From an uncultured Candidatus Saccharibacteria bacterium (GTDB taxonomy: Bacteria > Patescibacteriota > Minisyncoccia > Phycocordibacterales > UBA12445), in contig CAZHDO010000002.1 in assembly GCA_964531375.1 (NCBI GenBank), positions 21,469 through 85,468 of the forward strand: a stretch of DNA of 64,000 nt. The letters run 5' to 3'. Numbering within the stretch: position 1 is the first letter of the stretch; each line of letters opens with the position of its first letter. Positions 2,725 to 61,200 of the stretch are shown one piece after another. Below the pieces are notes generated by a model. That model had not been told where the DNA came from. It searched no databases and worked only from the letters and a program-made list of their open reading frames with translations. Position numbers and translations under genes: made by a program.

Positions 2725-3945
2725 ATGAAATTTGAGTTCAAGGCAAAAAAGCCAGATGGTAGTTTTATTGAAGGAACAAGAGAAAGTCTTGACCGTTTTC
2801 GACTTTCACACGAAATTGTTTCTGAAGGCCTAATCCCTGTTTTAATAAAACCTGTTTCAGAGGGTAGAAAATTTAATTTCGAATACTTTAACCAATTTTT
2901 TATAAGAATAAGCCTCCAGGAGAAGATTACTTTTTCACGCAACTTGGGCGCAATGCTTGCAGCTGGGCTTTCTTTATCACGATCACTCAGTGTCCTAGAA
3001 AAACAAACAGAAAACCCGAAGTTTAAAAAAATAATAAAATCATTACTAGACGATATTGAGGCTGGTAAAAGTTTAAGCCAAGCCCTTGTCCGTTTTCCTA
3101 ATGTTTTCTCGTCTCTTTTTGTTGCGATGGCCTCTGCGGGAGAGGAGTCAGGAAGTCTACATGAGTCATTAAAAATTGTCAGCGATCAACTAGACAAAAT
3201 ATACGCACTAAGGAAAAAGGTTAAAAGTGCACTTATATACCCAATAGTCATCTTAATCGCAATGGTTATAATTGGCTCTTTGATGCTTATTTATGTTGTT
3301 CCAACGATAATCGGGACATTTAAGGATTTTGATGCGACACTACCACTTTCTACAAAAATTGTTATAAATTCAAGTAACTTCCTGGTAAATAACTTTTTGC
3401 TTGTACTGTTTTCTTCCATATTTTTAGGATTCTTGTCGTATACAGCTGTAAATTCAGCAAAAGGACACAGGGTTACGGATTATATTTTACTAAAACTCCC
3501 CGTAATCTCCGAAATCGTTAAACAAATCAACACAGCCACAACAGCAAGAACAATTTCTTCTCTAGTTTCTTCTGGGGTAACACTAACAAAATCCCTAGAA
3601 ATAACTGCCGATGTTATACAAAATTATTACTATCGAAACGCCATTTTAAGGGCCGCTATTGGTATCCAAAATGGCGAATCCCTATCAAACCTATTTAAAA
3701 AAGAGGGTAATTTATTCCCAATTTTGATTACCGAAATGACTGAAGTGGGGGAAGAAACTGGCGGTCTTCCAAAAATGCTCATGAGTGTGGCAATTTTTTA
3801 CGAGGGTGAAGTTGATTCGTTAACAAAAGATATCTCTACAATTATTGAACCGGCTTTAATGCTTATTATTGGCGCTGCTGTCGGTTTTTTCGCCCTTGCG
3901 ATGATCCAACCTATATATGCACTAAGCGGAGGCGCTGGAATTTAA
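2725..3945 (+). CDS. pilC: Type IV pilus assembly protein PilC / T2SS protein F (GspF family).
   Basis: 406 aa, with the two T2SSF-type repeats and three-TM topology typical of PilC. It begins an operon with the prepilin-like genes downstream. Confidence 0.85.
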   Translation: MKFEFKAKKPDGSFIEGTRESLDRFRLSHEIVSEGLIPVLIKPVSEGRKFNFEYFNQFFIRISLQEKITFSRNLGAMLAAGLSLSRSLSVLEKQTENPKFKKIIKSLLDDIEAGKSLSQALVRFPNVFSSLFVAMASAGEESGSLHESLKIVSDQLDKIYALRKKVKSALIYPIVILIAMVIIGSLMLIYVVPTIIGTFKDFDATLPLSTKIVINSSNFLVNNFLLVLFSSIFLGFLSYTAVNSAKGHRVTDYILLKLPVISEIVKQINTATTARTISSLVSSGVTLTKSLEITADVIQNYYYRNAILRAAIGIQNGESLSNLFKKEGNLFPILITEMTEVGEETGGLPKMLMSVAIFYEGEVDSLTKDISTIIEPALMLIIGAAVGFFALAMIQPIYALSGGAGI

Positions 3946-4003
3946 GGTATTTGGTTTTTTGAGATAATAAATAAACACGAACTTCCACAACACAAGAATT
4001 GTT

Positions 4004-5806
4004 ATGCATAAAAACAAAAAAACAGGTTTTACACTAATAGAAACACTTGTTGGAGTTGCTATTTTTGTGATGATAGCAAGTAGTGTATACGAGGCGTATT
4101 CTTTGTTAATAAAATCAGCAAGGCTTTCCAGACTCAAAATAGCAGCAACGATGATCGCAAACGAACAAATAGAAATTGCTAGAAATCTTCCATATTCACA
4201 AGTTGGAACAGCTGGTGGTGTACCAAGTGGAGTAATGATTGCAGACAGAGTAATAGAAAGAGATAACGCAAAATTTAACGTAAAAGCAACAATTAGAAAC
4301 ATTGATGATCCTTTTGACGGAACACTTGGAGGTTCGCCAGGGGACACAGCTCCTGCAGACTACAAAAAAGTAGAGGTAGACGTTTCTTGTCCAGGGTGCG
4401 GAGGTGGATTTACAGATCTTAACCTAAACACAATAGTGGCCCCGAAAAATCTCGAAACAACATCAAGCAATGGTGCTTTATTTATAAATGTCTACGACGC
4501 GCTAGGACAACCAATCCCCAGTGCAGATGTAAAAGTAATAAATAGCACAGTAAGTCCAAACATCAACCTAACCGACATAACTGGTAATAATGGCTCACTA
4601 CAACTTGTCGATGTCCCTCCCTCAAGCCAAAGCTATCAGGTACAAGTTTCAAAAAAGGGTTATTCTAGTGAGATGACATATGCTCCAAACGGCACAATCA
4701 AAAATCCTGTTAAACCAAATTCAACAATAGCAGCACAAAAAGTTACGCAAATAAGTTTTTCTATCGATAAATTAAGCACAATTAATTTTTCAACACTTTC
4801 TTCTAATTGCACACCAAGTCCAAGTGTTGGTTTCCAACTAACAGGAAATAAAACACTAGGCACCACACCTACTGTTTTAAAGTACAATAAATATTTGACT
4901 ACCGATCAGAGTGGAAACAAAAACCTAAGTGATATTGAATGGGACACCTACAACATAGCGGTACCAGTAACATCGACAAGTACCTACTACATGACCGGAT
5001 CGCTGCCAACGTCTCCTACACTAACTTTACCAAATTCAACACAAAATTTTTATATAGTAACAAAACCAAAATTACCAAACGCCATATTAATATCTGTTAA
5101 AGATCAAGGAACAAAATTGCCAATAACAGGGGCTACTGTAACCTGGCTCAAAGGAACAACAGCTTCTTCTACGCTCGTAACAGGGAGAACTTCACAAACC
5201 CAAACCGACTGGTCTGGTGGTGAGGGACAGGACTATGTTATAAATCAAACAAAATTTTACAGCTCATCAAACATTAATTTCAATAATCCAATAGGGGATA
5301 TTCATCTTTCAGGTGCGCTTAATAACTATGAAAGCAGTGGTTTTCTAGAATCTTCGACGTTTGACATCGGCTCGGCGGGAAATTTCTACAGCCTGATATG
5401 GAACCCAAAGGACCAACCCTCAAAAACAGGCTCAAATAGTGTCAAATTCCAGATTGCCACAAATAATGACAAAAATACTTGGAATTATTTAGGTCCAGAT
5501 GGTACCTCAAATAGTTATTATGTTGTTTCTGGCACAAACATTAACGCATTACATAACGGAAATAGATACCTTAGATACAAAGCATTACTAAACACAGCTT
5601 CAACCTCAACAACCCCCACAATTTCAGATGTTTCTTTCGGGTTTACCGGCGCATGCGTTCCTGTTGGACAAGTTTTTTTTGATGGCCTGGCAACGGGAAA
5701 CTATACTCTAAATATCTCACGAAACAGCTATAATAGTATAACCAACCAGGCTTTTTCCGTTACAAATGGTTGGCAAGAGTTAATTGTTTATATGACACAG
5801 AAATAA
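4004..5806 (+). CDS. Large type IV pilin-like protein with a prepilin-type N-terminal cleavage/methylation domain.
   Basis: N-terminus MHKNKKTG|FTLIETLVGVAIFVMI is a class III signal (G-FTLIE with E at +5). 600 aa; the Thr/Ser/Asn-rich remainder suggests a minor pilin or tip adhesin. Confidence 0.6.
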   Translation: MHKNKKTGFTLIETLVGVAIFVMIASSVYEAYSLLIKSARLSRLKIAATMIANEQIEIARNLPYSQVGTAGGVPSGVMIADRVIERDNAKFNVKATIRNIDDPFDGTLGGSPGDTAPADYKKVEVDVSCPGCGGGFTDLNLNTIVAPKNLETTSSNGALFINVYDALGQPIPSADVKVINSTVSPNINLTDITGNNGSLQLVDVPPSSQSYQVQVSKKGYSSEMTYAPNGTIKNPVKPNSTIAAQKVTQISFSIDKLSTINFSTLSSNCTPSPSVGFQLTGNKTLGTTPTVLKYNKYLTTDQSGNKNLSDIEWDTYNIAVPVTSTSTYYMTGSLPTSPTLTLPNSTQNFYIVTKPKLPNAILISVKDQGTKLPITGATVTWLKGTTASSTLVTGRTSQTQTDWSGGEGQDYVINQTKFYSSSNINFNNPIGDIHLSGALNNYESSGFLESSTFDIGSAGNFYSLIWNPKDQPSKTGSNSVKFQIATNNDKNTWNYLGPDGTSNSYYVVSGTNINALHNGNRYLRYKALLNTASTSTTPTISDVSFGFTGACVPVGQVFFDGLATGNYTLNISRNSYNSITNQAFSVTNGWQELIVYMTQK

Positions 5807-5807
5807 A

Positions 5808-6434
5808 ATGTTGAAAAATAACAGAAAAAATCTATTTAAAAATGGTTTTACTACTGCTGAATTACTGGTTGGCATAGCAATTTTTGTTTTTATAGGGATG
5901 GCTGTTAACAAGTTTCAATCTAGTATCTTTTCATCTAGTTCTTATTTACAAGCAAGTCTCAGGACAGAAGATGACGCAAGAAGAATACTTAGAACTATTA
6001 TTTCTGAAATAAGGTCAATGAATTATTCAGCTGTTGGTGGATATCCAATAACCTCCGCAACTGGCAATTCATTTATTTTTTATAGCGACACAAACAATGA
6101 CAATAATACGGAAAGGTTGAGATATTTTATAGAAGGAACGAATCTAAAACGTGGAATTGTGTACCCAACAGGTTCTCCATTTTCCTATGACCTAAATAAT
6201 GAAAAAATATCTATAATTACTTCAAATATAGTAGCCACATCCAGTATTTTTTCTTATTTTAGTGACAGCTATGTTGGTACAGGAATGCCATTACCTGAAC
6301 CCGTAAATCTACCGGATGTAAGATTGATTAAAGTGAGTATTCCGGCCACTATTAAAACAGCCGACGGAAAAATATCGACTTCTTATGAAATTTCAAGTCA
6401 AGTTTCGATTAGAAATCTAAAAGATAATATGTAA
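5808..6434 (+). CDS. Prepilin-type pseudopilin / minor pilin.
   Basis: N-terminus KNG|FTTAELLVGIAIFVFI. Its start is 1 nt after the upstream stop, indicating translational coupling. Confidence 0.55.
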   Translation: MLKNNRKNLFKNGFTTAELLVGIAIFVFIGMAVNKFQSSIFSSSSYLQASLRTEDDARRILRTIISEIRSMNYSAVGGYPITSATGNSFIFYSDTNNDNNTERLRYFIEGTNLKRGIVYPTGSPFSYDLNNEKISIITSNIVATSSIFSYFSDSYVGTGMPLPEPVNLPDVRLIKVSIPATIKTADGKISTSYEISSQVSIRNLKDNM

Positions 6435-7903
6435 TGCTAGGTTTCAATAATAAAACACAAGATAAAAGCAAGAAACCAAAAAAGAAAGGTGCAATTTTGG
6501 TACAGATAATCGTTTTAACCTCTCTTGCTTCAATGCTAATAACCGCCCTTGCGAACTGGAGCGCGATATCTCTAAAAACCAGTAGAAAAGAATATTACAG
6601 AGAAATAGCGATACAAATTGCCGAGGCTGGAATAGATTATTACAGATGGCATTTAGCACACGCGCCAACCGACTACAAAGACGGAACACAGACAAATGGC
6701 CCATATGTTCACAATTACTACGATAAAAATGGAAATATACTTGGAACATTCTCTTTAGATATAACAGCGCCAACAACCGGCTCAACAAATGTAAAAATAA
6801 GATCAACAGGAAAGGTTTCGGCAGACGCAACTATTTCAAGAAAAATTGAAGTCGCGGTGGCAAAACCATCATTGGCCAAGTATGCAGTTATAACCGAAAA
6901 AGACGTAAGATTTGGTGAGGGGACAGAGATATATGGACCAGTACATTCTAACGGTGGCATTCGCTTCGATGGACTTGCACACAACATTGTCTCTTCTGCA
7001 CTATCCAATTACAACGACCCAGACCACTCTGGAAATGTTGAATATGCAGTGCACACACACCTAAATTCAGTCGACCCATACCCGCCAGCGACACTACCGA
7101 GCAGGGGTGATGTATTCCAGACAGGGAGATCCTTCCCAGTACCAGCTGTTGATTTTGCAAAATTCACAAACGATCTTTCTACTCTAAAAACAATAGCGCA
7201 ATCTTCTGGAGTCTATCTTTCAAGTTCGGGAAAATTAGGCTATCACCTTGTGCTAAAAACCAACGGAACTTTTGATATTTACAAAGTTACACAGCTCGTT
7301 CCTGTACCACAAAATTGTAATAGCAATAGCGGTCAGTTCGGATGGGGGACATGGAGTATTCAAACTGAAACTTTTGTACAAAATAGAGCATTCCCAACCA
7401 ATGGAATAATTTTTGCCGAGGATGATATTTGGGTTGATGGACAAATAAATAACGCGCGGCTAACGGTTGCCTGTGGACACTTCCCGGAAAACAAGGGTCA
7501 GGAAACTTCAATAACTGTAAACAATAATTTACTTTATACTTACTATGACGGAAGAGATAGCATCGGATTAATTTCTCAAGGTAATATAAACGCAGGTTTG
7601 ATGAGCGCCGATGTCCTTAGGATAGACGCTGCTCTTATTGCAAAAAACGATAGGGTAGGAAGATATTACTATCAACCTTCTTCCGGCAACAAAACCAATT
7701 GCTCTCCCTATGACACGAGAGACACAATTACTCTTTATGGGATGATAGCAACAAATGAGAGGTACGGTTTTGCCTACACAGACGACACCGGATATCAAAT
7801 AAGAAATATTATTTACGACGCGAATTTATTATTTTCACCCCCACCAAATTTCCCACTAACGACAGACCAATATCAAATAATTTCTTGGAAAGAAATAAAA
7901 TAA
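6434..7903 (+). CDS. Membrane-anchored protein, possibly a PilX-like minor pilin.
   Basis: Its ATG overlaps the upstream TAA. The N-terminal hydrophobic segment KKKGAILVQIIVLTSLASML is non-canonical (Q rather than E at +5). 489 aa. Confidence 0.4.
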   Translation: MLGFNNKTQDKSKKPKKKGAILVQIIVLTSLASMLITALANWSAISLKTSRKEYYREIAIQIAEAGIDYYRWHLAHAPTDYKDGTQTNGPYVHNYYDKNGNILGTFSLDITAPTTGSTNVKIRSTGKVSADATISRKIEVAVAKPSLAKYAVITEKDVRFGEGTEIYGPVHSNGGIRFDGLAHNIVSSALSNYNDPDHSGNVEYAVHTHLNSVDPYPPATLPSRGDVFQTGRSFPVPAVDFAKFTNDLSTLKTIAQSSGVYLSSSGKLGYHLVLKTNGTFDIYKVTQLVPVPQNCNSNSGQFGWGTWSIQTETFVQNRAFPTNGIIFAEDDIWVDGQINNARLTVACGHFPENKGQETSITVNNNLLYTYYDGRDSIGLISQGNINAGLMSADVLRIDAALIAKNDRVGRYYYQPSSGNKTNCSPYDTRDTITLYGMIATNERYGFAYTDDTGYQIRNIIYDANLLFSPPPNFPLTTDQYQIISWKEIK

Positions 7904-12642: not shown

Positions 12643-12787
12643 TTTTTAAAAAAGACGGCGCAAATCATCTTTTTAATTATCCAGATTGGTATTCGCTACA
12701 ACCCTGAGGTACAATATACAAATAAGACCGCTGGGAAGAGTAGAAATCAAACGGTCTATAGAAGTTATTAGCCTGTCTAGAAAACGC

Positions 12788-12816
12788 TTGAAAAATGAAA
12801 GGATATTGAGTATTAT
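12788..12816 (+). promoter_or_regulatory. Sigma70-like promoter for tRNA-Leu.
   Basis: TTGAAA, a 17-nt spacer, then TATTAT. The tRNA 5' end lies about 20 nt downstream. Confidence 0.5.
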
Positions 12817-12836: not shown

Positions 12837-12920
12837 GCGCGGGTGGCGAAACTGGTAGACGCACTACCTTGAGGTGGTAGCGCCCTTACGGGTATGGAAG
12901 TTCAAATCTTCTCCCGCGCA
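12837..12920 (+). tRNA. tRNA-Leu (anticodon GAG).
   Basis: Cloverleaf folds by eye: acceptor gcgcggg/cccgcgc, anticodon loop uuGAGgu, long variable arm, T-loop gttcaaatc, discriminator A. CCA is not encoded. Confidence 0.85.
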
Positions 12921-13174
12921 CAAAATAACCATCCAGAAGCGAAAGCTTTTGGTGGTTTTATTTTATAGACGCCGGGAAGATTTGAAAGACGGAAGTGGGC
13001 CCCTTTCTGCAAAAAAGGGAGCTGAGTCGCGATAGCAAACGGCGAAGAACCTTCTTGAGAATTTTTCAGAGCAAGGTGAATGAAAAAGTCAAAGGTGTAC
13101 TGAACCTGTAAGGTTTGAGAGTACTTAGTGCTCGCAAATTGCGAAGCAATTGAGAACACTTAGTAACTCGTGAC

Positions 13175-13195
13175 CAAATCTTCTCCCGCGCACAA
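13175..13195 (+). repeat. 21-bp exact copy of the tRNA-Leu 3' end (att-like direct repeat).
   Basis: caaatcttctcccgcgcacaa is identical to 12903-12923. Confidence 0.8.
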
Positions 13196-13270
13196 CATAA
13201 AAACACATCAACTGATATTTTGATGTGTTTTTGCATTTTAACAAACATTTTACCGTGCTATTATAGAAAT

Positions 13271-13819
13271 ATGCTTTATACAGGAAATGGGGACAATGGT
13301 TACTCAAAACTATTTGGATGCGAACAAGAGATTGGAAAGGATTCTGAAATTTTTGAAATTTTGGGGATTTTTGACGAATTAAATTCTTTTTTGGGTATAT
13401 GCAAGGTAAAAGCTAATAACCATAAAATTAGCAAAGAACAAACATTTAGCGAAATATTAGAAGAAATACAGCAAAATCTTTTTATTATTCAAGCCAACTT
13501 AGCTGGTGCAAATAAAGTATTTGGTTTAGAAAAAACCATTAAAACAGAAGAGATAATAAATGAAATAGAAAAAGAACTACCAAAAATAAGGAGTTTTTGT
13601 GTTTCGGGAGGAAATGAGCTTTCAACCTACCTAGATTTCGCAAGGACAATCGCCAGAAAAGCTGAAAGGGGATTTGTAAAAATACAAACAATCAAAGCCG
13701 TATTTAATAATGAAAATATTGCCCCATTTTTAAACCGACTTTCCAGCCTCTTGTATGCTTTGTCAAGATTTGCTAATCTCAAGTCTGGGTTTAAAGAGAT
13801 AAACCCAACATATAAATAG
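13271..13819 (+). CDS. ATP:cob(I)alamin adenosyltransferase, PduO/MMAB type.
   Basis: N-terminus MLYTGNGDNGYSKLFGCE...DELNSFLG matches the Cob_adeno_trans signature (YTKTGDxGxTSL...DELN). The ORF opens at 13220, with the conserved start at 13271. Confidence 0.7.
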   Translation: MLYTGNGDNGYSKLFGCEQEIGKDSEIFEILGIFDELNSFLGICKVKANNHKISKEQTFSEILEEIQQNLFIIQANLAGANKVFGLEKTIKTEEIINEIEKELPKIRSFCVSGGNELSTYLDFARTIARKAERGFVKIQTIKAVFNNENIAPFLNRLSSLLYALSRFANLKSGFKEINPTYK

Positions 13820-13821
13820 AT

Positions 13822-13893
13822 GGTGGCCATGGTGTAGTGGTAACACAACAGTCTGTGGATCTGTTATCGCCGGTTCGAATCCGGCTGGTCACC
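13822..13893 (+). tRNA. tRNA-His (anticodon GTG).
   Basis: An extra 5' G(-1) pairs with discriminator C73, which is the hallmark of tRNA-His. Anticodon loop cuGUGga, T-loop ttcgaat. The anticodon stem has one U-U mismatch. Confidence 0.75.
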
Positions 13894-14112
13894 CAAATAA
13901 AAAATCCTTATATGCGGACTTTTTGATTAGGTGGCCAAAAAAGCAAACTTCTTTGCTTTCGCGCCGAGTTCGAAGCCGTTCTCCCATAAGATTTATATAA
14001 CAAAATTGTGTTAAATCTACGACACACTGGTCACTCCAACGGGAATTGAACAAAACAATTAGACAATGAATCTAAAATGATAAATAATCATACTTAATAT
14101 ATAATTTGGTTT

Positions 14113-35140: not shown

Positions 35141-36943
35141 ATGAGCTTTTTTGGAAAACAAAACGACGAAAATAAAATAGAGACAATTCTACCGCAGGAT
35201 ATATATTCTGGTGGGGTTTTGGAGCTCAAGGATATTATTTCTCCTTCAGCGCTAGAAATTGGATCAAATAGCATTAAACTAGGGGAGAAGATAGCGAGGA
35301 CGTTTTTCGTCATTTCTTATCCTAGGTTTTTGTCTGAAAACTGGTTTTCTCCAATAATAAATCTCGACAAAATATTCGATGTTTCTCTTGTAATACACCC
35401 GATAGACACATCCACAGTCCTTCATCAACTTCAAAAGAAACTAGCTGAAGTACAAAGCCAAATACACTCCAACGAAACAAAAGGAATGGTCCGAGATCCT
35501 ATGCTCGACACAGCTTTTCAAGACATAGAGACATTAAGAGACCAATTATCCCAAGCCAGAGAGAAAATTTTTGACGTCGGACTTTATCTCACAATGTACG
35601 CCAACAGTGAAGAGGAACTAAATAAGGTTGAAGCTGAAATTAAAACGATAATGGAATCAAGGCTGGTGTATATAAAACCTGCTCTTTTTCAACAAGAAGA
35701 AGGGTTTAATAGTATTATGCCAATCGCATCAGACGCGCTAGCCGTGAACACTAAACTTAACTCGGCTCCGCTTTCTAGTATTTTCCCCTTTATCTCTTTT
35801 GACCTTACTTCAAACAAAGGAATTTTATATGGAATAAATAGACACAACTCCAGCCTTATAATCTTCGACAGATTTTCACTTGAAAACTACAACTCTGTTA
35901 TCTTTGCCAAAGCTGGCTCTGGTAAATCTTATTTTACAAAACTGGAAATTTTAAGGTCTTTAATGTTCGATGTAGATGTAATTGTAATTGACCCTGAAAA
36001 AGAATATGAATTCCTAGCAGAAGCTGTCGGGGGTAGGTATTTTAATATTTCCCTCTCGTCAGAACACCACATAAATCCTTTTGACCTTCCACCAGTAAGA
36101 GAAGATGAATCTCCATCTGATGTTTTGAGATCTCACATTATTAGTCTCGTGGGGTTGTTTAGAATAATGCTTGGAGGAATGTCGCCAGAAGAAAGCTCTG
36201 TTATGGATAATGCGATAATGGAGACATACGCCCTTAAAGATATAACAGCGGATAATGATTTCACAAACGCAAATCCTCCGCTTATGTCTGACCTTGAACT
36301 CGTGCTCGCGGGTATGGACGGGGGGGCATCGCTTGCACAAAGGCTTCTTAAATACACACAAGGAACTTGGTCCGGATTCTTAAACAGACCAACAAACATC
36401 GACATCAATAAAAAATTCATAGTATTTTCTGTTCGCGATATGGAAGACGAACTCAAGCCTATCGCAATGCACATAATAATGAATAATATTTGGGGCTCAA
36501 TCAGAAGAGACCTGAAAAAGAGAATGCTTATTATCGACGAGGCGTGGTGGATGATGAAATCGCCAGATACCGCTTCATTCTTATACAGCCTCGCAAAAAG
36601 AGGTAGAAAATATTATCTCGGTGTGACAACAATTACACAAGACGTCGCCGATTTTTTAAACTCGCCATACGGTATTCCTATCATTACGAACTCTTCAATG
36701 CAGATAATATTAAAACAATCTCCAGCCTCGATAGGCCTTGTTCAAAAAACGTTCAACCTGACCGACGAAGAGAAGTTTTTGCTTTTAGAGTCGAATGTGG
36801 GGGAGGGAATCTTCTTTGCTGGCTTGAAGCACGTTGCAATTAAAGTAATCGCTTCATACACCGAAGATCAAATAATAACATCAGATCCATCACAGATATT
36901 AGCGATTAAAAAAGCAAAAGAAGATTTAAGAGCGACGGAGTAG
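35141..36943 (+). CDS. VirB4/TrbE/CagE-family T4SS ATPase (C-terminal body).
   Basis: Walker A FAKAGSGKSYF, Walker B MLIIDEAWWMM, middle region ARTFFVISYPRFLSENWFSPII, and C-terminal RGRKYYLGVTTITQDVADF. 600 aa. Confidence 0.75.
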   Translation: MSFFGKQNDENKIETILPQDIYSGGVLELKDIISPSALEIGSNSIKLGEKIARTFFVISYPRFLSENWFSPIINLDKIFDVSLVIHPIDTSTVLHQLQKKLAEVQSQIHSNETKGMVRDPMLDTAFQDIETLRDQLSQAREKIFDVGLYLTMYANSEEELNKVEAEIKTIMESRLVYIKPALFQQEEGFNSIMPIASDALAVNTKLNSAPLSSIFPFISFDLTSNKGILYGINRHNSSLIIFDRFSLENYNSVIFAKAGSGKSYFTKLEILRSLMFDVDVIVIDPEKEYEFLAEAVGGRYFNISLSSEHHINPFDLPPVREDESPSDVLRSHIISLVGLFRIMLGGMSPEESSVMDNAIMETYALKDITADNDFTNANPPLMSDLELVLAGMDGGASLAQRLLKYTQGTWSGFLNRPTNIDINKKFIVFSVRDMEDELKPIAMHIIMNNIWGSIRRDLKKRMLIIDEAWWMMKSPDTASFLYSLAKRGRKYYLGVTTITQDVADFLNSPYGIPIITNSSMQIILKQSPASIGLVQKTFNLTDEEKFLLLESNVGEGIFFAGLKHVAIKVIASYTEDQIITSDPSQILAIKKAKEDLRATE

Positions 36944-37009
36944 GAGGGGTAAGTATTTAGTATTAGGTATTTGGTATTTAGTATAAAAATACACAATACA
37001 AATAAAAAA
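36944..37009. repeat. GTATTTAGTAT-family repeat element.
   Basis: TAG-gaggggtaagtatttagtattaggtatttggtatttagtataaaaatacacaatac. Confidence 0.7.
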
Positions 37010-37609
37010 ATGCCAGAAGAAAATACGCCGACATTAGACAAAGCAGACTGGTTAAGCCTTTATCTCGTGGCCATTTTTTTTGATGTTATGGGCTGGTTGA
37101 TGGCTTTTGTGGATATTTTTTTGTTAGGGTGGGGAGGGTTCTTTTTAAATCTTTCTGGGGGGGCCACTTTCTCACTTTGGTTAGCAATCTGGAAAGACAA
37201 ATTCGGTGGTTTTGGTAAAATATCAACGACGTTTATAATTGTTTTTCTTTTAGAAGCAACCCCTATTGTGGGCGATGTTTTACCACTTTGGACTGGCATG
37301 ATTTACAGGTTACAAAAAAATCACGAAAAAAACCTAATGGGTACAATAACAGGCACCATCAAAGACAAAGCAACAAAAAAGAAAGAGCAGGACGAGAGAA
37401 GAAAAAAAGAGGAGGACGAAAAAAAGAAAAAAACAGAAGAAGATGGAAGAAGGGAAGAAGAAAGAAGAGAACAACAAAGACAAAAGGAAATGGATGAGAA
37501 GAAAGCAGAAAGACTGGAAAATGGAAAAAGTAGCCAAAATGAAAAGGAGGTAGGTGAAAATAAAAATGAGGGTCTGGAAGAAGCCCAACCTGCACAACAA
37601 GTAGAATAA
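37010..37609 (+). CDS. Small polytopic membrane protein with a Lys/Glu/Arg-rich cytoplasmic tail.
   Basis: ATG at 37010 (MPEENTPTL). Three or four TM helices, then a KKEQDERRKKEEDEKKKK tail. The ORF-track start at 36971 is a TTG inside the repeat element, and I reject it. Confidence 0.4.
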   Translation: MPEENTPTLDKADWLSLYLVAIFFDVMGWLMAFVDIFLLGWGGFFLNLSGGATFSLWLAIWKDKFGGFGKISTTFIIVFLLEATPIVGDVLPLWTGMIYRLQKNHEKNLMGTITGTIKDKATKKKEQDERRKKEEDEKKKKTEEDGRREEERREQQRQKEMDEKKAERLENGKSSQNEKEVGENKNEGLEEAQPAQQVE

Positions 37610-37617
37610 ACAAAAAT

Positions 37618-38622
37618 ATGAAAAAATATCTAGCTCAAATAATTTTAATATCAACAATACTCCTACCACTTAGCGTTGGGGCCGTTGCGACAACTCCGAC
37701 CATTGGGGGTAATTTATCCATAGAGCTCGAACCAAAAAATCCAGGAAGTATGACTTTTGTAAAGGCAACAGCAGTGAGCTTCGAGGCTGAGCTAGGAAGC
37801 GCAACAATATCTTGGTATTTAAATGGAAAACTGGAAAGGGAAGGGGTTGGTCAAAATAATTTTACTTTTCAAACAGACAAACCAGGCCAAATTTCAATAA
37901 TCAAAACCGTAATAAAAACTGATAAAAAACAAATAGAAAAAACAATTTTAATAAATCCCGCTGATGTTGATATTGTTTGGGAAGCGAATACATACACAAC
38001 TCCTTTTTATAAAGGAAAGGCCCTAGCTTCTCCAAGCAGTACTATAAAAATAACAGCTATTCCAAGTATAATTTCTAACCAAGGAACTGCTCTTTCTCCA
38101 GCAAATCTAACATATAAATGGAAATATAATTACGAAAACTTATTATCTGGAATTGGAAAACAAAACGCAGAAATAAAGACTGGATCTCCTTTTACAGATA
38201 ACGTTATTTCTGTGGTTGTATCAGACAATACTGGTAGTATCGTCGCCGAAAAAACGATAAAAATCAGACCTGAAAACCCTAATATTGTTTTTTATGAAGA
38301 CAAATCAATAGAAGGAACAAACTACAACATGGCTTTAGATAATACTTATAATTTAAGTGAAAAAGAAAGCACTGTTAGAGCAGAGCCATATTTCTTTTCT
38401 TACCCGAAATCTGCAACCGAGAATAATCTGTTATTTAGTTGGGCATTAAATAGCAACGGCATTGCACCAAACGACGGCAGTCCTAAGATAATTACCCTCA
38501 GAAATGAAACTGGCAAAAATATCACATCGGAACTTTCTCTTTCAATAGAAAATACAATGCAAGTATTTCAGTCTGCAATTAACAAACTAACAATAAAAGC
38601 AACATCTGGCCTTGGTTTTTAA
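37618..38622 (+). CDS. Secreted protein with Ig-like beta-rich repeats.
   Basis: Signal peptide MKKYLAQIILISTILLPLSVGAVA. 334 aa. Confidence 0.5.
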   Translation: MKKYLAQIILISTILLPLSVGAVATTPTIGGNLSIELEPKNPGSMTFVKATAVSFEAELGSATISWYLNGKLEREGVGQNNFTFQTDKPGQISIIKTVIKTDKKQIEKTILINPADVDIVWEANTYTTPFYKGKALASPSSTIKITAIPSIISNQGTALSPANLTYKWKYNYENLLSGIGKQNAEIKTGSPFTDNVISVVVSDNTGSIVAEKTIKIRPENPNIVFYEDKSIEGTNYNMALDNTYNLSEKESTVRAEPYFFSYPKSATENNLLFSWALNSNGIAPNDGSPKIITLRNETGKNITSELSLSIENTMQVFQSAINKLTIKATSGLGF

Positions 38623-38631
38623 TCGAAAAAA

Positions 38632-39414
38632 ATGAAAAATAAAACTTTTAAAAATGTAATAAGAAAAATGTTGGCGGTTCTTTGTTTTTTTATGCCAATA
38701 ATTTCATTTGCAGCCACAACTGGCTATATACCACTGGAACCACTGCCTGGGTTAAAATCCACGGACGGAGTTGTAAGTCCTGGTGATTATATTAAGTCTG
38801 CATATTGGTATGTTCTCGGAATGACGATTGCACTTTCTGTTTTAATGATGGTTGTCGGCGGCCTACAATACACACTCACTTGGGCAGATCCCGGCCAAGC
38901 AGGGGAAGGAAAGAAAAGGATCGAAAGTGCCGTTATTGGACTAATTCTTGCCTTACTATCTTGGCTTATTCTTTATACAATTAACCCACGGTTAGTTGAT
39001 TTAAGCATGCCGACAGCAAAAGAGTGTGAAAAGGCACCAACCGCATCAACAAACACAACAGTTATACCAGTATCTGGAAACGCAAGTGGTAGTGGAGCAG
39101 TAGGTCCAACAATCGAGGCACAAAAAGAACTGGAGGCTTTAAAGAAAAAAATAAAAGAAATTCCTGATATGAATAAACCAACAGAGACATCAGGATGGGA
39201 TCCCCTTTTGCAAATTCAACCACCAACACAAAACCCTAATCCAACCACAATAACAACACCTCCAGCCCCAACACCAACTCCGACTCCAGCGCCTACTCCA
39301 ACACCAGCACAAGAAAAACCAACAACATCAACACAAGCACCCTTTACCACAAACAATGGTTGGACATTTCACGAGGTTCCGATAGAACAACCTAATAATA
39401 ATCAAGGAGATTAA
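38632..39414 (+). CDS. VirB2/TrbC-like pilin candidate with a Pro/Thr-rich C-terminal extension.
   Basis: A long signal peptide, then two hydrophobic helices (AYWYVLGMTIALSVLMMVVGG and VIGLILALLSWLILYTI) separated by a short charged loop. The tail is TTPPAPTPTPTPAPTPTP. Assignment is by topology only. Confidence 0.35.
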   Translation: MKNKTFKNVIRKMLAVLCFFMPIISFAATTGYIPLEPLPGLKSTDGVVSPGDYIKSAYWYVLGMTIALSVLMMVVGGLQYTLTWADPGQAGEGKKRIESAVIGLILALLSWLILYTINPRLVDLSMPTAKECEKAPTASTNTTVIPVSGNASGSGAVGPTIEAQKELEALKKKIKEIPDMNKPTETSGWDPLLQIQPPTQNPNPTTITTPPAPTPTPTPAPTPTPAQEKPTTSTQAPFTTNNGWTFHEVPIEQPNNNQGD

Positions 39415-42650: not shown

Positions 42651-44039
42651 ATGTCTGACAACAAAAAAATCTGGGACAGCGCTTTAGGGGAGATAGAGAT
42701 GGACGTCTCCAGAGCAAATTTTAGCACTTGGTTTAAAAATACATTTATCGCGAGAGAAGAAGATGGCAATATATATCTTTCTGTACCAAACGCTTTCGTA
42801 AAAGATTGGCTTTCAAATAAATATCACAAATTTATACTAAAGGCATTAAGAAATGTTTCCCCAAACACAAGAAATGTTGAATACATTATCCAAAAAGAAG
42901 GAACAGTTGTAAAAGAACCATACAGCAATCTAACAACTGAGCAAAAAACGACAGTAAGTCAGCTTAAACTAAACGAACCTTACGTAAATAGAGAGGATAA
43001 TCTTAATCCAAAATACATTTTTGAAAACTTCATCGTTGGACCTTTCAACGAACTAGCTTTTGCTGCCTCTCAATCGGTCATAAAGAGGCCTGGCGTGGAT
43101 TATAATCCTCTTTATATATACGGAGGAACTGGACTCGGTAAAACTCACCTTATACAAGCAATCGGCAATTCACTAAAGAAGGCTGGCGCTAGGGTTTTCT
43201 ACTTAACATCCGAAAGATACACTGTCGAACTTGTAAGCGCAATGCAAAACAATACGATTAATTCCTTTAAAGAGAAATATAAAAAATACGACACGCTTAT
43301 AATAGACGACGTTCAGTTCTTTGGAGGTAAAGACAAAACTCAAGAAGAAATCTTCCACCTCTTTAATGATTTTTACAACAACAATAAACAAATTGTTTTC
43401 TCATCAGACAAGCCACCGAAGTTCATACCAAATCTTGAAGAAAGACTTAGGTCGCGCTTCGAAGGTGGAATGACTGTGGATATCTCTAGACCAGAATATG
43501 AATCTAAGATCGCTATTCTTCAAACAAAACTAAAAGTTATGAATTATGCTTTGTCTGATGAAGCTCTTCAATTCATAGCATCTAATGTTCAAGAAAGCAT
43601 TCGAGAACTTGAAGGTGTTTTAAACTCTGTAATATGCCAGTCTCAACTTAAGAACAGAGAAATAAATATTCAAGAAATAAAAGCTCTCATAAAAAATAAT
43701 ACCAGACAGCAAAAAACAATTTCCTTTAAAGATATATTAAGAATAATTGCTGACTACTATAATATTGAGGAAAAATTCCTATACGAAAAGACCAGAAGGA
43801 GGGAAGTGGTAAAACCAAGGCAAATTGCTATGTACATCTTAAGAGAAGATCTTAATTCTTCTTATCCATATATAGGACAAAAATTCGGTGGCAGAGACCA
43901 CACCACAGTTATACACGCCTGTGAAAAAATAAAAGCTGATTTAAAGGAAAATGAAGCCTTACTACGAGAGATAGAAGAAATTAAAACCTTATTATTCGGG
44001 TCTGAAAACAAATCCCCAATTCTAGCTGGAAGTTGTTAA
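42651..44039 (+). CDS. dnaA: Chromosomal replication initiator DnaA.
   Basis: Walker A GGTGLGKTHL, box VII and sensor motifs, and the C-terminal DNA-binding domain KFGGRDHTTVIHA. Confidence 0.9.
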   Translation: MSDNKKIWDSALGEIEMDVSRANFSTWFKNTFIAREEDGNIYLSVPNAFVKDWLSNKYHKFILKALRNVSPNTRNVEYIIQKEGTVVKEPYSNLTTEQKTTVSQLKLNEPYVNREDNLNPKYIFENFIVGPFNELAFAASQSVIKRPGVDYNPLYIYGGTGLGKTHLIQAIGNSLKKAGARVFYLTSERYTVELVSAMQNNTINSFKEKYKKYDTLIIDDVQFFGGKDKTQEEIFHLFNDFYNNNKQIVFSSDKPPKFIPNLEERLRSRFEGGMTVDISRPEYESKIAILQTKLKVMNYALSDEALQFIASNVQESIRELEGVLNSVICQSQLKNREINIQEIKALIKNNTRQQKTISFKDILRIIADYYNIEEKFLYEKTRRREVVKPRQIAMYILREDLNSSYPYIGQKFGGRDHTTVIHACEKIKADLKENEALLREIEEIKTLLFGSENKSPILAGSC

Positions 44040-44270
44040 TTAACTGTGGATAAAAACAAGTTTAAGTTGTGGGTAAACCGTGGAGAAAAGAGGTGATAAA
44101 AAAGGGGTACAATTAACCACAGATGGACAGCAAAATTACAGTACGATAATCCACAGAGAAAAAAATAGATTACCTTTAAAATAAAAGATATAATTAAGTT
44201 ATACACTTATCAACAGTCCTAATAGTAATAATAAACTTTTATATATAATTATTTAAATAAATAAAATCCT
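44040..44270. promoter_or_regulatory. DnaA-box cluster (dnaA-dnaN intergenic; second half of oriC).
   Basis: TGTGGATAA at 44045-44053, TGTGGGTAA at 44068-44076, TTAACCACA at 44112-44120, TAATCCACA at 44146-44154. Confidence 0.6.
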
Positions 44271-45371
44271 ATGAAAGCAGAATGTTTAAAAAACAAACTT
44301 AAAGAAGCAGTCTTCCAAGTAGGAAAAATATCTGGTAAGAATTTATCATTACCAATTCTTGAAGCAATACTTATTGAAGCTAAAGAAAATGAAATTATTT
44401 TAAAGGCAACAAATCTAGATATCGGTTTGGAAGTTAGAATTTCTGCTAAAGTTGAGAGGGAAGGGGCTGTTGCTGTTCCAGGATATTTGATAGCTGGTTT
44501 TATACAGATGCTAGAGGGAGATACTGTCGTTAAATTAGAATCGGTTAATAATAACCTTTCTGTTTCTAGTAAGAAAAATTCTACATTAATTAAAAGTTAT
44601 CCTGCGGATGAATTTCCTTTGATTCCAAGAGTTGAAAAAGAGGAGTCGTTTTTTATTGAGGCATCTAAGATAATTAACGGTATAAAATCAGTTTCTTTTG
44701 CAGCTCTTGCTTCTGATATAAAGCCTGAGATTTCAAGTGTGTATATGTATTTTGATAATGGTTATTTATATTTTGTTTCAACAGACTCCTCTAGGCTGGC
44801 AGAAAAGAAGTTTGAGATAAACAAAGATGCTAATTTTTCTTCTTCTATAATTCCAATAAAAAATGCTAACGAGCTGGTTAGAATATTAGAAAGTACAGAA
44901 GGGGATGTGGAACTTATTTTTAATAAAAACCAGATGTCTGTAATTTCATCTTCAGTTTATTTTACATCAAGAGTTGTGGGTGGAATTTTTCCTGATTACA
45001 GACAAATAATTCCAAAAGATAAAAAAACAGAAGTCATTGTGCAAAAACAAGAGTTGGCAGATTCTATAAAAATGTCGACTATTTTTTCTGATAAATTTAA
45101 TCAAATAAATTTTAAAATAATTCCAGCAGATGGTTTTTTTGAGATAAGCTCTAGAAATCAAGACAAGGGGGAAAGTGTTACGAGAATAGATTCGACTTTA
45201 AAAGGGGAGGATATTGATATGAGTTTTAATGCTAAATTTATTTTAGATTCCATTGCTTCTGTTCAGGATAATAATATAACCATAGATTTTAATGGACACC
45301 AAAGACCAGTTATAATAAAAGGTGTTGGTGATAATTCATTTACATATCTGTTAATGCCGATGATAAAGTAG
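44271..45371 (+). CDS. dnaN: DNA polymerase III beta sliding clamp.
   Basis: 366 aa directly after dnaA. N-terminus KNKLKEAVFQVGKISGKNLSLPILEAILIEA is the beta-clamp pattern. Confidence 0.85.
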   Translation: MKAECLKNKLKEAVFQVGKISGKNLSLPILEAILIEAKENEIILKATNLDIGLEVRISAKVEREGAVAVPGYLIAGFIQMLEGDTVVKLESVNNNLSVSSKKNSTLIKSYPADEFPLIPRVEKEESFFIEASKIINGIKSVSFAALASDIKPEISSVYMYFDNGYLYFVSTDSSRLAEKKFEINKDANFSSSIIPIKNANELVRILESTEGDVELIFNKNQMSVISSSVYFTSRVVGGIFPDYRQIIPKDKKTEVIVQKQELADSIKMSTIFSDKFNQINFKIIPADGFFEISSRNQDKGESVTRIDSTLKGEDIDMSFNAKFILDSIASVQDNNITIDFNGHQRPVIIKGVGDNSFTYLLMPMIK

Positions 45372-55479: not shown

Positions 55480-57177
55480 TCAGTATCCTTCGTCTGCAAC
55501 TACCAACTCAACAACTCTCGCTAACTCTTCCATTGATGTTATTCCTTGTAAAACCTTCAAAATTCCATGTTCCCTCATGTCTAGTATTCCTTGTTTCTTG
55601 GAAGCACTTTTAATATCTAAAGCATTTACTCTATCTGTAATAACCTTATTTACTTCTGAATCAACCATTATTGCCTCAAATACACCAGTTCTGCCTTTGT
55701 ATCCAACCCCGTGACAAGCAGGGCATCCATCACCAGCCATCCATATTTTACCTCCATCTGGCAGATTAATATCTGGTCTTTTTTCGTTAATTAATTTTGA
55801 AACAATATTAATTATTTTTGTTTCATCTTCTTTTGGTGTTGTTTCTTTTTTGCATTGCTGACAAAGCTGTCTTACAAGTCTTTGTGCGATGGTGAGGGTA
55901 AGGGCTGAACCAATAATTTTTGGATTTACTCCAAGGTCTACGAGTCTTGGAATTGCGCCCGCTGCGTCGTTTGTGTGTAGGGTAGAGAAGACAAGGTGTC
56001 CTGTAAGAGCAGAGTTAATAGCAATCTTGGCTGTCTCTGTGTCTCTTATTTCTCCAACCATTATAATGTCTGGGTCTTGTCTGAGCGCAGAGCGAAGGCC
56101 TTCAAGGAATGTGTATCCTGAGTCTTCGTTGGTTTGTGTTTGGGACAAACCTTTCATGTGGTATTCGACAGGGTCTTCGATTGTGATTATTTTTGTTTCG
56201 TTGTCGTTTACCTTTCTGAGAAAAGCATAAAGTGTGGTTGTTTTACCGGAACCCGTTGGACCTGTGGTCAAAATAAGGCCATTTGGTTTTTTAATCTCGT
56301 CGTTAAAAATCTTTAAGAGTTTTTCTTCAATACCCATATCTTCAAGGTTTATAGATATTGAATCTGGGTCGAGAAGTCTCATTACGATTGTTTCTCCGTA
56401 TACTCCAGGTAGCACAGAAGTTCTTACTTCGATTTCTTTTTGATTTGTCGCAATTGTGAATCTTCCGTCTTGCGCGCCTTTCTTCATGTTTAATTTAAGA
56501 GCAGAAATGAGTTTGATTCTGGAAACGATTAGTTTGTATACATTATTACTTAAGAAATCTATGTCATGCAAAATACCGTCTAATCTATAGCGAAGTCTTA
56601 CCGACTCTTCCTGTGGTTCCATATGAATGTCTGATGCAGATGTTGCAAGGGCTCCACCTAAGACTATTTCTAATATTCTAGAAACACCTTGTGTTTTGTT
56701 ATTTTCAGTGAGTTCTTTTATTTGAACTTGAACATCTTTTACATCTTTTGTTCTTGAGAGAATTTCTGTTAAAAGTTCTTTTGAGATATCAACTAATCCA
56801 GCTTTTGTTTCTACTGATTTTGATATTTCCGCATATCTGGCCCAGGATTTTTCAAGACCTCTTTCTGATCCTATGTTAAGAGTAATTGTATAACCTCTTT
56901 CTTTTAGGTCATTTAAGACTTGGTCTAATTTAGGATTAGATGGCGTAAGTATTACAACGCTTAATTTTTTGCCCGTGAGCTGGAAGCCAGCAATCTTTGC
57001 TTCTTTTGCAACTGATTCATCGATAAGTTTAAGAGCATCTGTATTGATAGAGATATTCATCATATCAACATAGGGAATCGAGTATCTCGAAGAGAGTATT
57101 CTGGCAAGATCTTCTGCTTCCTGTATCTTCAGGTCGTCGATCTTTTTTTGATTTTGTGTGTCGTCGAATGTCGTCAT
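55480..57177 (-). CDS. pilB: Type IV pilus assembly ATPase PilB / GspE.
   Basis: N-terminal GSPII_E_N-like domain, Walker A TGPTGSGKTTTL, Asp/His boxes, and the tetracysteine-region motif CPACHGVGYKGRTGVFE. 565 aa. Confidence 0.85.
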   Translation of the reverse strand: MTTFDDTQNQKKIDDLKIQEAEDLARILSSRYSIPYVDMMNISINTDALKLIDESVAKEAKIAGFQLTGKKLSVVILTPSNPKLDQVLNDLKERGYTITLNIGSERGLEKSWARYAEISKSVETKAGLVDISKELLTEILSRTKDVKDVQVQIKELTENNKTQGVSRILEIVLGGALATSASDIHMEPQEESVRLRYRLDGILHDIDFLSNNVYKLIVSRIKLISALKLNMKKGAQDGRFTIATNQKEIEVRTSVLPGVYGETIVMRLLDPDSISINLEDMGIEEKLLKIFNDEIKKPNGLILTTGPTGSGKTTTLYAFLRKVNDNETKIITIEDPVEYHMKGLSQTQTNEDSGYTFLEGLRSALRQDPDIIMVGEIRDTETAKIAINSALTGHLVFSTLHTNDAAGAIPRLVDLGVNPKIIGSALTLTIAQRLVRQLCQQCKKETTPKEDETKIINIVSKLINEKRPDINLPDGGKIWMAGDGCPACHGVGYKGRTGVFEAIMVDSEVNKVITDRVNALDIKSASKKQGILDMREHGILKVLQGITSMEELARVVELVVADEGY

Positions 57178-60939: not shown

Positions 60940-61127
60940 GGAGAATTGGGGGGTGGTCTCTATGAGACCAGCAGGATTCTTCCATTACATGGACGGTATA
61001 GCTTTCCCATTTTCTGGGATTTTAAAATCCCAGAAAATAAGGGAGAAGCTTTTCGAATCCTGCGCGAAAGCAAAGCAGTTTGCTTTCTTGGGCGCAAAAT
61101 TAAAACACCTTTCGGTGTTTGAATTTG

Positions 61128-61200
61128 TGCGCCCAGCAGGATTCGAACCTGCGACCATTCGCTTAAGAGGCGACTGCTCTACCAACTGAGCTATGGGCGC
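61128..61200 (-). tRNA. tRNA-Lys (anticodon CTT).
   Basis: The reverse complement folds as a cloverleaf: gcgccca acceptor, D-loop agttggta, anticodon loop cuCUUaa, T-loop ttcgaat, discriminator A. Confidence 0.8.

Follow-up and report, generated by a model that had tools for sequence, protein, structure and literature searches.

The 64,000-nucleotide stretch of DNA analysed here (the window) comes from an uncultured Candidatus Saccharibacteria bacterium (GenBank assembly GCA_964531375.1, contig CAZHDO010000002.1, positions 21,469 to 85,468 of the forward strand) and carries a tRNA-Leu(GAG) gene whose 3' end recurs exactly a short distance downstream, which an earlier note on this DNA had taken for the attachment-site scar of a tyrosine integrase or for a miniature integrated element. 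On our best reading the second copy of this repeat is the structural 3' arm of a structured element of ~225 nt, here called unit B, and not a lone attachment-site scar. Unit B apparently belongs to a large and undescribed family that stands behind many tRNA genes of the Paceibacteria and copies the tail of the tRNA that precedes it; full-text searches of the literature returned no description of such elements. Throughout, X denotes the tRNA-derived 3' segment (X1 at the gene, X2 at the far end of the element), X' the inverted copy of X, and M the part enclosed between X' and X. Coordinates are collected in Table 1.

As the earlier note had proposed, a true duplicate of a tRNA 3' end here bounds inserted non-coding DNA. 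The 21-mer CAAATCTTCTCCCGCGCACAA has two exact sites on the plus strand of the window, 12903-12923 and 13175-13195, and no third one when up to three mismatches are tolerated; shuffled controls gave a mean of 0.01 matches, with two or more in 0 of 100 shuffles, and its repetition is not due to chance. Identity between the two copies stretches to 25 of 26 nt, continuing to 13200 with one mismatch. The 21-mer comprises the T-loop from C56 onward, the 3' strands of the T-stem and acceptor stem, the discriminator A and CAA. CCA is absent from the sequence of the gene, the 3' end of which is placed at 12921 by ARAGORN and at 12920 by Rfam, and X2 likewise retains ACAA. Both copies precede a terminator-like hairpin, and a promoter scan places a promoter-like TTGAAA-17-TATTAT at 12788-12816, upstream of the tRNA. 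The intervening segment is non-coding and rich in hairpins, as had been described, and is 251 nt long, not 252; the only open reading frames (ORFs) that touch it overlap the tRNA or a terminator and were judged spurious, including one on the minus strand at 12902-13159 that was set aside because it overlaps both. In the NCBI annotation of GCA_037130235.1 that same stretch (12902-13159, minus strand), which extends from the tRNA 3' end over the terminator into unit B, is listed as an 85-aa ORF with a GTG start; this is very probably an artefact of gene calling to which the GC-rich, structured element has given rise. Short-read Logan contigs of the same organism from two samples (L002, L003, L010 and L011; SRR12676969/70) break inside tRNA-Leu, at 12864 and 12882, and restart at 13143 in both samples, which could reflect branching of the assembly graph at the tRNA sequence or at repeated elements.

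Unit B spans 12970-13195 on the strand of the tRNA and begins directly past the tRNA's terminator-like hairpin. Its 5' arm, X', starts 49 nt past the end of tRNA-Leu and repeats the tRNA 3' end in inverted, complementary form; in both the minimum-free-energy (MFE) and the centroid fold it pairs with X2 over 14 bp. X' is equally able to pair with X1, and direct reading of the sequence shows that the outer part of the first hairpin prolongs the complementarity between X1 and X'. Inside the arms lies a 5' module made of an AAAG linker, a GAC-GGA...GA-GUC unit whose hairpin (13001-13019) has CUGC in its loop, and GUCGCGA, which forms the 5' strand of what we call the P2 base. A nested type-1 core follows, in which GCGAAGAACC, hairpin H2, AAAGGUGUACU and hairpin H3 (GAACC-UGUAA-GGUUU) succeed one another and match the type-1 motif (CGAARACC, H2, GGUGUACW, H3 with a UGUAA loop) exactly. 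The 3' module then contributes two ACUUAGU-containing hairpins and a conserved UAGUAACUCGUGAC that supplies the 3' strand of the P2 base, before X2 closes the element with the discriminator A and CAA. Block alignment and a motif search (motif C) find in unit B the long-form frame of the family, namely GAAAG-GAC-GGA...GA-GUC and, directly before X, UAGUAACUCGUGACC; in alignments with three long-form relatives (L129, L152 and L193), X' and the GAAAG-P0/P1 module match first, followed by the nested type-1 core, by the ACUUAG hairpins and UAGUAACUCGUGACC, and by X at the end. The GC content of unit B (0.44-0.47) exceeds that of its flanks (0.28-0.37), and the fold z-score of the locus is -6.6 with the terminators included and -2.5 with the terminators excluded. 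Against Rfam 15 the segment 12922-13198 had no match at the gathering thresholds and, at E<=10, only chance-level ones attributable to the terminator and the tRNA; for six related loci there was no Rfam match at all.

The same layout recurs behind tRNA genes of other genomes. In a sample of 79 species-level loci fetched through PduO, the protein encoded by the gene downstream of unit B, we counted 188 tRNAs (with those of the window) and 184 upstream controls; at a score of at least 12, a direct copy of the tRNA 3' end was found downstream of 20/188 tRNAs and upstream in 3/184, and an inverted copy downstream of 19/188 and upstream in 2/184. Inverted copies lie ~40-75 nt and direct copies ~130-315 nt past the tRNA, the common order being tRNA, terminator, X', conserved core and X, and the tRNAs with elements in these loci include Leu, His, Val, Arg, Ser and Lys. 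The arms track each genome's own tRNA sequence variants. A covariance model, R1, gave 26 hits in the same loci, 20 of which start 15-162 nt past a same-strand tRNA, the remaining six being located mostly at the ends of contigs. An exact-pattern scan of metagenomes for the type-1 motif widened the sample to at least 120 contigs, and the figures that follow hold among the matches listed. A same-strand tRNA lies within 450 nt upstream of 82 of 127 motif copies, the motif typically standing 100-140 nt past the tRNA end, and the tRNAs concerned comprise ~37 species with different anticodons and nearly all amino-acid types. At a score of at least 12, X matches the local tRNA in 44 and X' in 45 of these 82 cases, as against 1/82 and 3/82 when the tRNAs are mispaired.

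The interiors of these elements are of few kinds and are independent of the type of tRNA, so that cores are common to different tRNAs and the arms are local. Type 1 has the core motif given above, type 2 reads GAAAG-NCC-GGAG-hairpin-GAG-GCGGGGUCGCGAG-hairpin-CUYGUGACC, and a third type stands behind tRNA-His in L038 and L074. Among 2.9 million viral contigs of IMG/VR the type-1 motif has 0 matches; a type-2 15-mer has 66, of which 65 are by chance (their loci have a median GC of 0.62) and one is real, and a viral origin was rejected on these two results. The real match, at 2880-3319 of L215 (IMGVR_UViG_3300033463_005745), is an array in which two or more type-2 modules share arms, with no tRNA in the stored stretch, and could be a phage of the Candidate Phyla Radiation or a misclassified host fragment. 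In another contig (L101, ~1850-2080) a type-1 element stands behind an RNA with the T-arm/acceptor-like ccaggttcgagtcctggtcgcggagcc at its end, in which ARAGORN calls no tRNA; the arm of the element fits the 3' end of this RNA, which may be a transfer-messenger RNA (tmRNA) or an intron-containing tRNA.

Covariation within the core agrees with a conserved secondary structure. The model R1 was built from A4, an alignment of 36 type-1 elements in which the helices tested were H1, H2, H3 and the T-loop extension. Paired cells make up 88.2% of A4, against 71.5% in shuffled alignments and at most 46% when pairing partners are slid; double-sided changes number 154 against 55, and the covariation score is 0.395 against 0.135. 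In none of 500 shuffles was the observed paired percentage, the number of cells with double-sided changes or the covariation score reached; the number of pairs with a double-sided change and that of further pair types were not above the shuffles (87/500 and 168/500). One pair of H3, 117-125, occurs as CG in 17, AU in 12 and UA in 7 elements, and its 3' base lies outside the search pattern. Purines predominate in the junctions between helices, where tandem GA motifs and CGAAGACC occur; readings of these junctions as a T-box, a hammerhead or a canonical K-turn were considered by eye only, and the sequences are off consensus for each. In type-1 copies hairpin H1 interrupts X' exactly at the junction of acceptor and T-stem. 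H1, H2 and the terminators together contain 1598 Watson-Crick pairs, with 14 of G·U and 4 of A·C; the figures for the tRNA acceptor stems in those contigs are 541 for Watson-Crick and 24 for G·U. The G·U pairs at the type-2 P2 base were not used as a marker of strand; the search pattern forces those bases and their count is not independent. Taken together, the interval belongs to a conserved, covarying, structured family in relatives, an outcome of the kind that the earlier note had named as counting against its own reading. The elements behind tRNA-Gln in L139 and L203 are orthologous and nearly identical; most of their differences are double substitutions in H1 and H4 that compensate fully, and G·U intermediates are lacking, a pattern suggesting that hairpins are swapped between copies and do not drift.

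The sequence of the arms bears on how they were made. Acceptor-stem G·U pairs were compared at 16 positions in 14 loci, and at all 16 the base in X' is complementary to X by Watson-Crick pairing and is not the 5' nucleotide of the tRNA (in tRNA-Ala, for example, G3·U70 becomes A-U in X'/X); X' is a complement of the tRNA 3' strand and not a copy of its 5' strand. The complementarity usually passes through the trailer, giving perfect palindromes of 24-28 bp centred on the terminator loop, and the direct repeat usually ends at the position after the discriminator. In 9 of 44 second copies the repeat ends in NCCA where the gene has NCAA, NCAG or NCAC.

Several comparisons show that the parts of the element are exchangeable and its sites variable. 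In L067 and L074 an identical tRNA-His is followed by a homologous terminator and X', and the interiors are of type 2 and type 3, respectively, the exchange falling exactly between X' and X; the core behind tRNA-Leu in L034 and that behind tRNA-Arg in L047 are 90% identical. Arrays of two or three modules occur behind single tRNAs, and many relatives have no element at the same tRNA, among them L004 and 12 loci in which PduO starts within 40 nt of tRNA-Leu. Copies also occur outside tRNA contexts. In L133 the core follows a protein gene (we take its C-terminus to be EF-G-like), the last 26 nt of which recur beyond the core with 23 of 26 matching, and in L158 the arms, whose sequence is not that of a tRNA, form a perfect helix of 21 bp; when the non-tRNA copies were searched for direct repeats, a clear one was found at L133 alone.

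Within the window, elements stand behind tRNA-Leu, tRNA-His and tRNA-Lys, and therefore all three of its tRNAs carry one. The element behind tRNA-Lys(CUU) is a full-length type 1 with arms that fit tRNA-Lys; its H3 is the variant CCA-UGUAA-UGG, with UAUACC ahead of it instead of GGUGUAC. The element behind tRNA-His is decayed and was not picked up by R1 in the window scan, and its recognizable parts are an arm GGTGGCCA, H1 AAAGCAAACTTCTTTGCTTT, CGCCGAGTTCGAAGCC and an end CTGGTCACTCC. Its H1 is nearly identical to that of the tRNA-Lys element, and its 5' arm retains the tRNA's G at one G·U position, contrary to the rule for the family. Elsewhere in the 64 kb R1 found nothing convincing, the sole other match listed scoring 8.7 bits (E 2.8).

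Table 1. Features of the tRNA-Leu locus and related elements in the window
Feature	Positions	Strand	Basis
tRNA-Leu(GAG) gene	12837..12921	+	ARAGORN; Rfam tRNA, 50.6 bits
X1, first copy of the 21-mer	12903..12923	+	Exact search
Terminator-like hairpin 1	12924..12968	+	A-rich trailer; stem 12928-12941/12946-12958 with two G·U pairs; U-tract
X', 5' arm of unit B, CGCCGGGAAGATTTG	12970..12984	+	MFE and centroid folds; inverted repeat I11
5' module, long-form (type-2) frame	12985..13041	+	Block alignment with L129, L152, L193; type-2 consensus
Nested type-1 core	13042..13118	+	Covariance model R1, 39.4 bits, E 6.7e-8, model positions 44-120
3' module	13119..13174	+	Motif C; block alignment; fold
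X2, second copy of the 21-mer	13175..13195	+	Exact repeat; 3' arm of closing helix
Terminator-like hairpin 2	13199..13232	+	13-bp perfect stem, 8-nt loop, Us; inverted repeat I5; fold
PduO-type cobalamin adenosyltransferase	13271..13819	+	Pfam PF01923; synteny
Decayed element behind tRNA-His (13823-13894)	13931..14040	+	By eye; repeats D9, D13
Full-length type-1 element behind tRNA-Lys(CUU) (61127-61200, minus)	60950..61099	-	R1, 64.5 bits, E 3.9e-14, model positions 1-153

The family has points of likeness with several known systems and coincides with none of them; covariance models for known Rfam 15 families, including tmRNA, T-box, group I and II introns, rtT, 6S, RNase P and self-cleaving ribozymes, gave no match. 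Like the attL/attR sites of tRNA-targeting integrative elements and their integrase-less remnants that resemble cis-mobilizable elements, the direct repeat begins in the T-loop and bounds DNA after an intact tRNA, at a site that varies among relatives. Unlike them, the unit is only ~150-230 nt long, has no integrase among the 39 ORFs of the window, contains an inverted copy of the tRNA end, and combines locus-specific arms at all types of tRNA with a shared, covarying core. The 178-bp repeats of E. coli tyrT and their rtT RNA are non-coding units placed after a tRNA, with copies of the tRNA 3' end, that are co-transcribed and released by processing. The present elements resemble this system (RF00391) in standing directly after a tRNA gene, each with its 3' end, but have no match to it in Rfam at E<=10; rtT lacks an inverted arm and is confined to one enterobacterial operon, whereas the present family stands behind most tRNAs in some Paceibacteria. 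With tmRNA and other tRNA-capped RNAs the elements share the plan of a larger structured insert closed by its paired ends, which form an acceptor-like helix that terminates in a discriminator and, in some copies, CCA; acceptor-like ends are substrates of RNase P and of the CCA-adding enzyme. Unlike tmRNA they lack a T-loop, a tag reading frame, and G3·U70 and the other identity pairs (Watson-Crick pairs stand in their place), and neither ARAGORN nor Rfam calls one. The resemblance of GCAAACGGCGAAGAAC to the start of the E. coli tag was dismissed accordingly, as there is no T-arm, G3·U70 or ARAGORN call.

Small size, lack of coding capacity, hairpins, extragenic multicopy occurrence, patchiness, decayed copies and arrays also recall miniature inverted-repeat transposable elements (MITEs) and the hairpin-forming doublets of repetitive extragenic palindromes (REPINs). 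The arms, however, come from the adjacent gene and are not a constant inverted repeat, copies share motifs and structure but not sequence, and position and orientation relative to the tRNA are fixed; the earlier note had raised the question of MITE-like behaviour, and blastn turned up the interval nowhere else in the window. As a perfect complement of ~15-25 nt to the tRNA 3' end that reaches into the T-loop, X' resembles the primer-binding site of a long terminal repeat (LTR) element. It differs in lacking a preceding TGG, in place of which it continues as the complement of the trailer, and no LTRs or reverse transcriptase accompany it; the idea was rejected on the absence of TGG and the continuation into the trailer complement. 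A group I intron inserted in the T-loop was likewise rejected (the possible splice sites lack the U and omega-G pairing, and Rfam gave no match); the group I introns described in tRNAs of Patescibacteria lie in the anticodon loop (PMC13011429).

We put at about an even chance the proposal that these are tRNA-appended elements, i.e., modular and mobile units of an RNA type with arms derived from their target. Strict co-orientation with the tRNA, covarying helices, purine-rich motifs on the plus strand, the H1 hairpin at the acceptor/T-stem junction and the enrichment of CCA all suggest a tRNA-capped RNA, while Watson-Crick templated arms, repeats of the trailer, patchiness, arrays, swapping of cores and decayed copies suggest copying and mobility at the level of DNA. 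One side of the X'/X helix presents the sequence of the tRNA's coaxial T-stem and acceptor 3' strand, ending in a discriminator and, in many other copies, in CCA. Read-through from the strong tRNA promoter could transcribe the element, and the tRNA-like end might allow RNase P, RNase Z or exonucleases, and the CCA-adding enzyme to excise a stable RNA. The arms would be made from the local tRNA at installation, X' as a templated complement of the 3' strand and X as a duplicate. A more far-reaching form of this proposal, which we advance tentatively and consider rather doubtful, is that the elements constitute a new class of tRNA-gene-specific mobile RNA element in which the core moves and both arms are re-synthesized from the target at each insertion, the direct arm perhaps by duplication of the tRNA 3' end or by copying of a mature CCA-bearing RNA and the inverted arm by fold-back copying. 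If the arms are remade in this way, each copy would therefore be a tRNA-capped RNA that hijacks processing by RNase P and the CCA-adding enzyme.

A number of observations weigh against an RNA-type unit of this kind. The near-absence of G·U pairs (14/1612 against 24/565 in the acceptor stems) is unusual for an old structured RNA and fits palindromes at the DNA level or very young copies. In some copies the direct repeat reaches 5-22 nt into the trailer, which points to duplication of DNA rather than to mimicry by an RNA. The arms of unit B itself are imperfect, with two single-base bulges; a terminator-like hairpin with a U-tract separates it from tRNA-Leu, and a promoter scan of the locus found no clear promoter ahead of X'. 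The decay of the tRNA-His copy means that not every copy is under selection. We see no functional reason why the arms should have to match the adjacent tRNA, and the idea of a tRNA mimic for aminoacylation was rejected, since the X'/X helix drops the tRNA identity pairs. Nor did the 39 ORFs of the window, scanned against Pfam, include a candidate for the enzyme that would copy the arms.

Several of these points could be expected of a selfish palindrome acting at the level of DNA, i.e., a non-autonomous insertion at the 3' flank of tRNA genes and occasionally of other highly transcribed genes, in which folded single-stranded DNA or a cruciform would be recognized by an enzyme acting in trans, the repeats would be duplications derived from the target, and any RNA would be a by-product. 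We consider this rather improbable, though it comes next in likelihood. It accommodates stems that are near-perfectly Watson-Crick and very poor in G·U, the palindromes of 24-28 bp that join the tRNA end to X', the exact complement at G·U sites, the entry of direct repeats into the trailer, the copy behind a protein gene in L133 with its 23/26 repeat and the 21-bp non-tRNA arm of L158, as well as the arrays, patchy distribution, decayed copies and cores swapped between tRNAs. It does not readily explain the strict orientation relative to the tRNA, the unpaired conserved motifs that are purine-rich and RNA-like only on the plus strand (where G·U exceeds A·C by 14:4), the enrichment of CCA at the 3' arm, or the tRNA-shaped design by which H1 of type 1 breaks X' exactly at the acceptor/T-stem junction; moreover, the copies are dissimilar in plain sequence, and the Pfam scan of the window ORFs turned up no transposase, integrase or other recombinase (tyrosine or serine), and no reverse transcriptase. 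Vertical inheritance of a non-mobile host gene for a regulatory or structural non-coding RNA paired with each tRNA, with arms kept in register by selection or gene conversion, seems unlikely to us. It would suit the covarying helices, the conservation of core motifs across genomes with PduO proteins only ~50% identical and the frequent grouping of elements behind the same tRNA (Leu in L016, L074, L036 and L086; His in L033 and L076; Arg in L074, L047 and L067), but it is at odds with the absence of elements from the same tRNA in many related genomes (L004 and the 12 loci with a short Leu-PduO spacer), with different cores behind an identical tRNA-His and a 90%-identical core behind different tRNAs, and with decayed copies and non-tRNA contexts.

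The original proposal, that the two 21-mers are attL and attR of a tyrosine integrase in tRNA-Leu whose element has decayed to 250 bp or persists as a cis-mobilizable miniature, we now regard as very improbable. Many tRNA-targeting integrases reportedly use repeats that run from the T-loop to beyond the tRNA end, and the repeat here does start in the T-loop and run past the tRNA, a terminator follows both copies, the spacer is a hot spot, and a relative (L080) has a gene between 14-nt copies of the tRNA-Leu end. One integrase specificity cannot, however, explain local arms around shared cores behind ~37 tRNA species (again among the matches listed) and nearly all tRNA types, when a family of att sites would be expected to keep to a single tRNA; the inverted copy X' is integral to the element, there is no integrase among the 39 ORFs, and the core motif is absent from the 2.9 million viral contigs, in one of which alone the type-2 motif occurs. 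"Miniature element" remains a fair description. Scarcely any weight attaches to a local accident, either a chance repeat or a tandem duplication of tRNA-Leu decayed to a pseudogene, for which a weak similarity between 12729-12746 and 12970-12987 (83% over 18 nt) could be cited; chance is excluded, the interval shows no likeness to a tRNA body, and the motifs of the family occur behind unrelated tRNAs elsewhere.

The gene that follows unit B encodes a PduO-type cobalamin adenosyltransferase, which had been thought unusual for a reduced genome and a possible trapped cargo. Neither suspicion is borne out: at E<=1e-20 there are 1415 homologues, those that are named belonging to Paceibacterota and related candidate groups, and the nearest same-strand tRNA upstream of PduO is Leu(GAG) in 43 of the 79 loci and the nearest downstream is His in 64. 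Since the order tRNA-Leu(GAG), PduO, tRNA-His is conserved, PduO is a conserved neighbour and not cargo, and it lies outside the element. The suggestion of an integration hot spot has held up better. The tRNA-Leu/PduO spacer is variable, ranging from -1 to 3363 nt over the 43 loci and measuring no more than 40 nt in 12, and in the closest long-contig relative (L004, PduO 54% identical) it holds three genes and no repeat. In L080 (2946-3960) a 257-aa ORF with a hydrophobic N-terminal stretch lies between tRNA-Leu(GAG) and a 14-nt copy of its 3' end with a terminator; copies of tRNA ends can therefore flank a gene too. L004 and L005, of one species, are identical until 1 nt past tRNA-His (5641) and wholly divergent thereafter, L005 continuing with a 533-aa large serine recombinase and small ORFs; an island particular to that strain appears to sit at the 3' end of tRNA-His. 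A scan of genome contigs with the S8 peptidase as an anchor gave no match.

PduO has a -10-like box ~6 nt ahead of its ATG (13262-13274 in the window, 4985-5003 in L004, and likewise in the PduO loci L012-L091), starts 0-40 nt past tRNA-Leu in 12 loci and is followed by tRNA-His after ~6-25 nt, which suggests that its mRNA is leaderless or is released through tRNA processing (tRNA punctuation). Farther away, the window contains dnaA-dnaN (42651-45371), a probable replication origin region, a TraG-like ATPase with a pilin-like protein of a type IV secretion system (T4SS) at 35141-39414, and, at 2725-7903 and 55480-57177, genes of a type IV pilus or type II secretion system (T2SS), i.e., PilC-like and PilB-like proteins and a pilin with an N-methylation motif.

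If the family is real, an unannotated structured element stands behind most tRNA genes in many genomes of the Paceibacteria (Candidate Phyla Radiation) and makes up a sizeable part of the non-coding DNA of very small genomes. Gene callers mis-annotate it, and island finders that rely on repeats would wrongly score its loci as integration scars. A tRNA-linked repeat and a tRNA-capped RNA are kinds of element already known; that the re-templating of arms is a genuinely new mechanism of mobility is a possibility toward which we lean less than away. Arms that are re-templated imply a copying process, such as fold-back synthesis, retro-copying or template switching, that is undescribed for bacterial repeats. 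With a tRNA-like cap and CCA, these elements would also indicate that the enzymes of tRNA processing may mature further RNAs in such cells, which would link them to the tRNA-flanked and apparently leaderless PduO gene.

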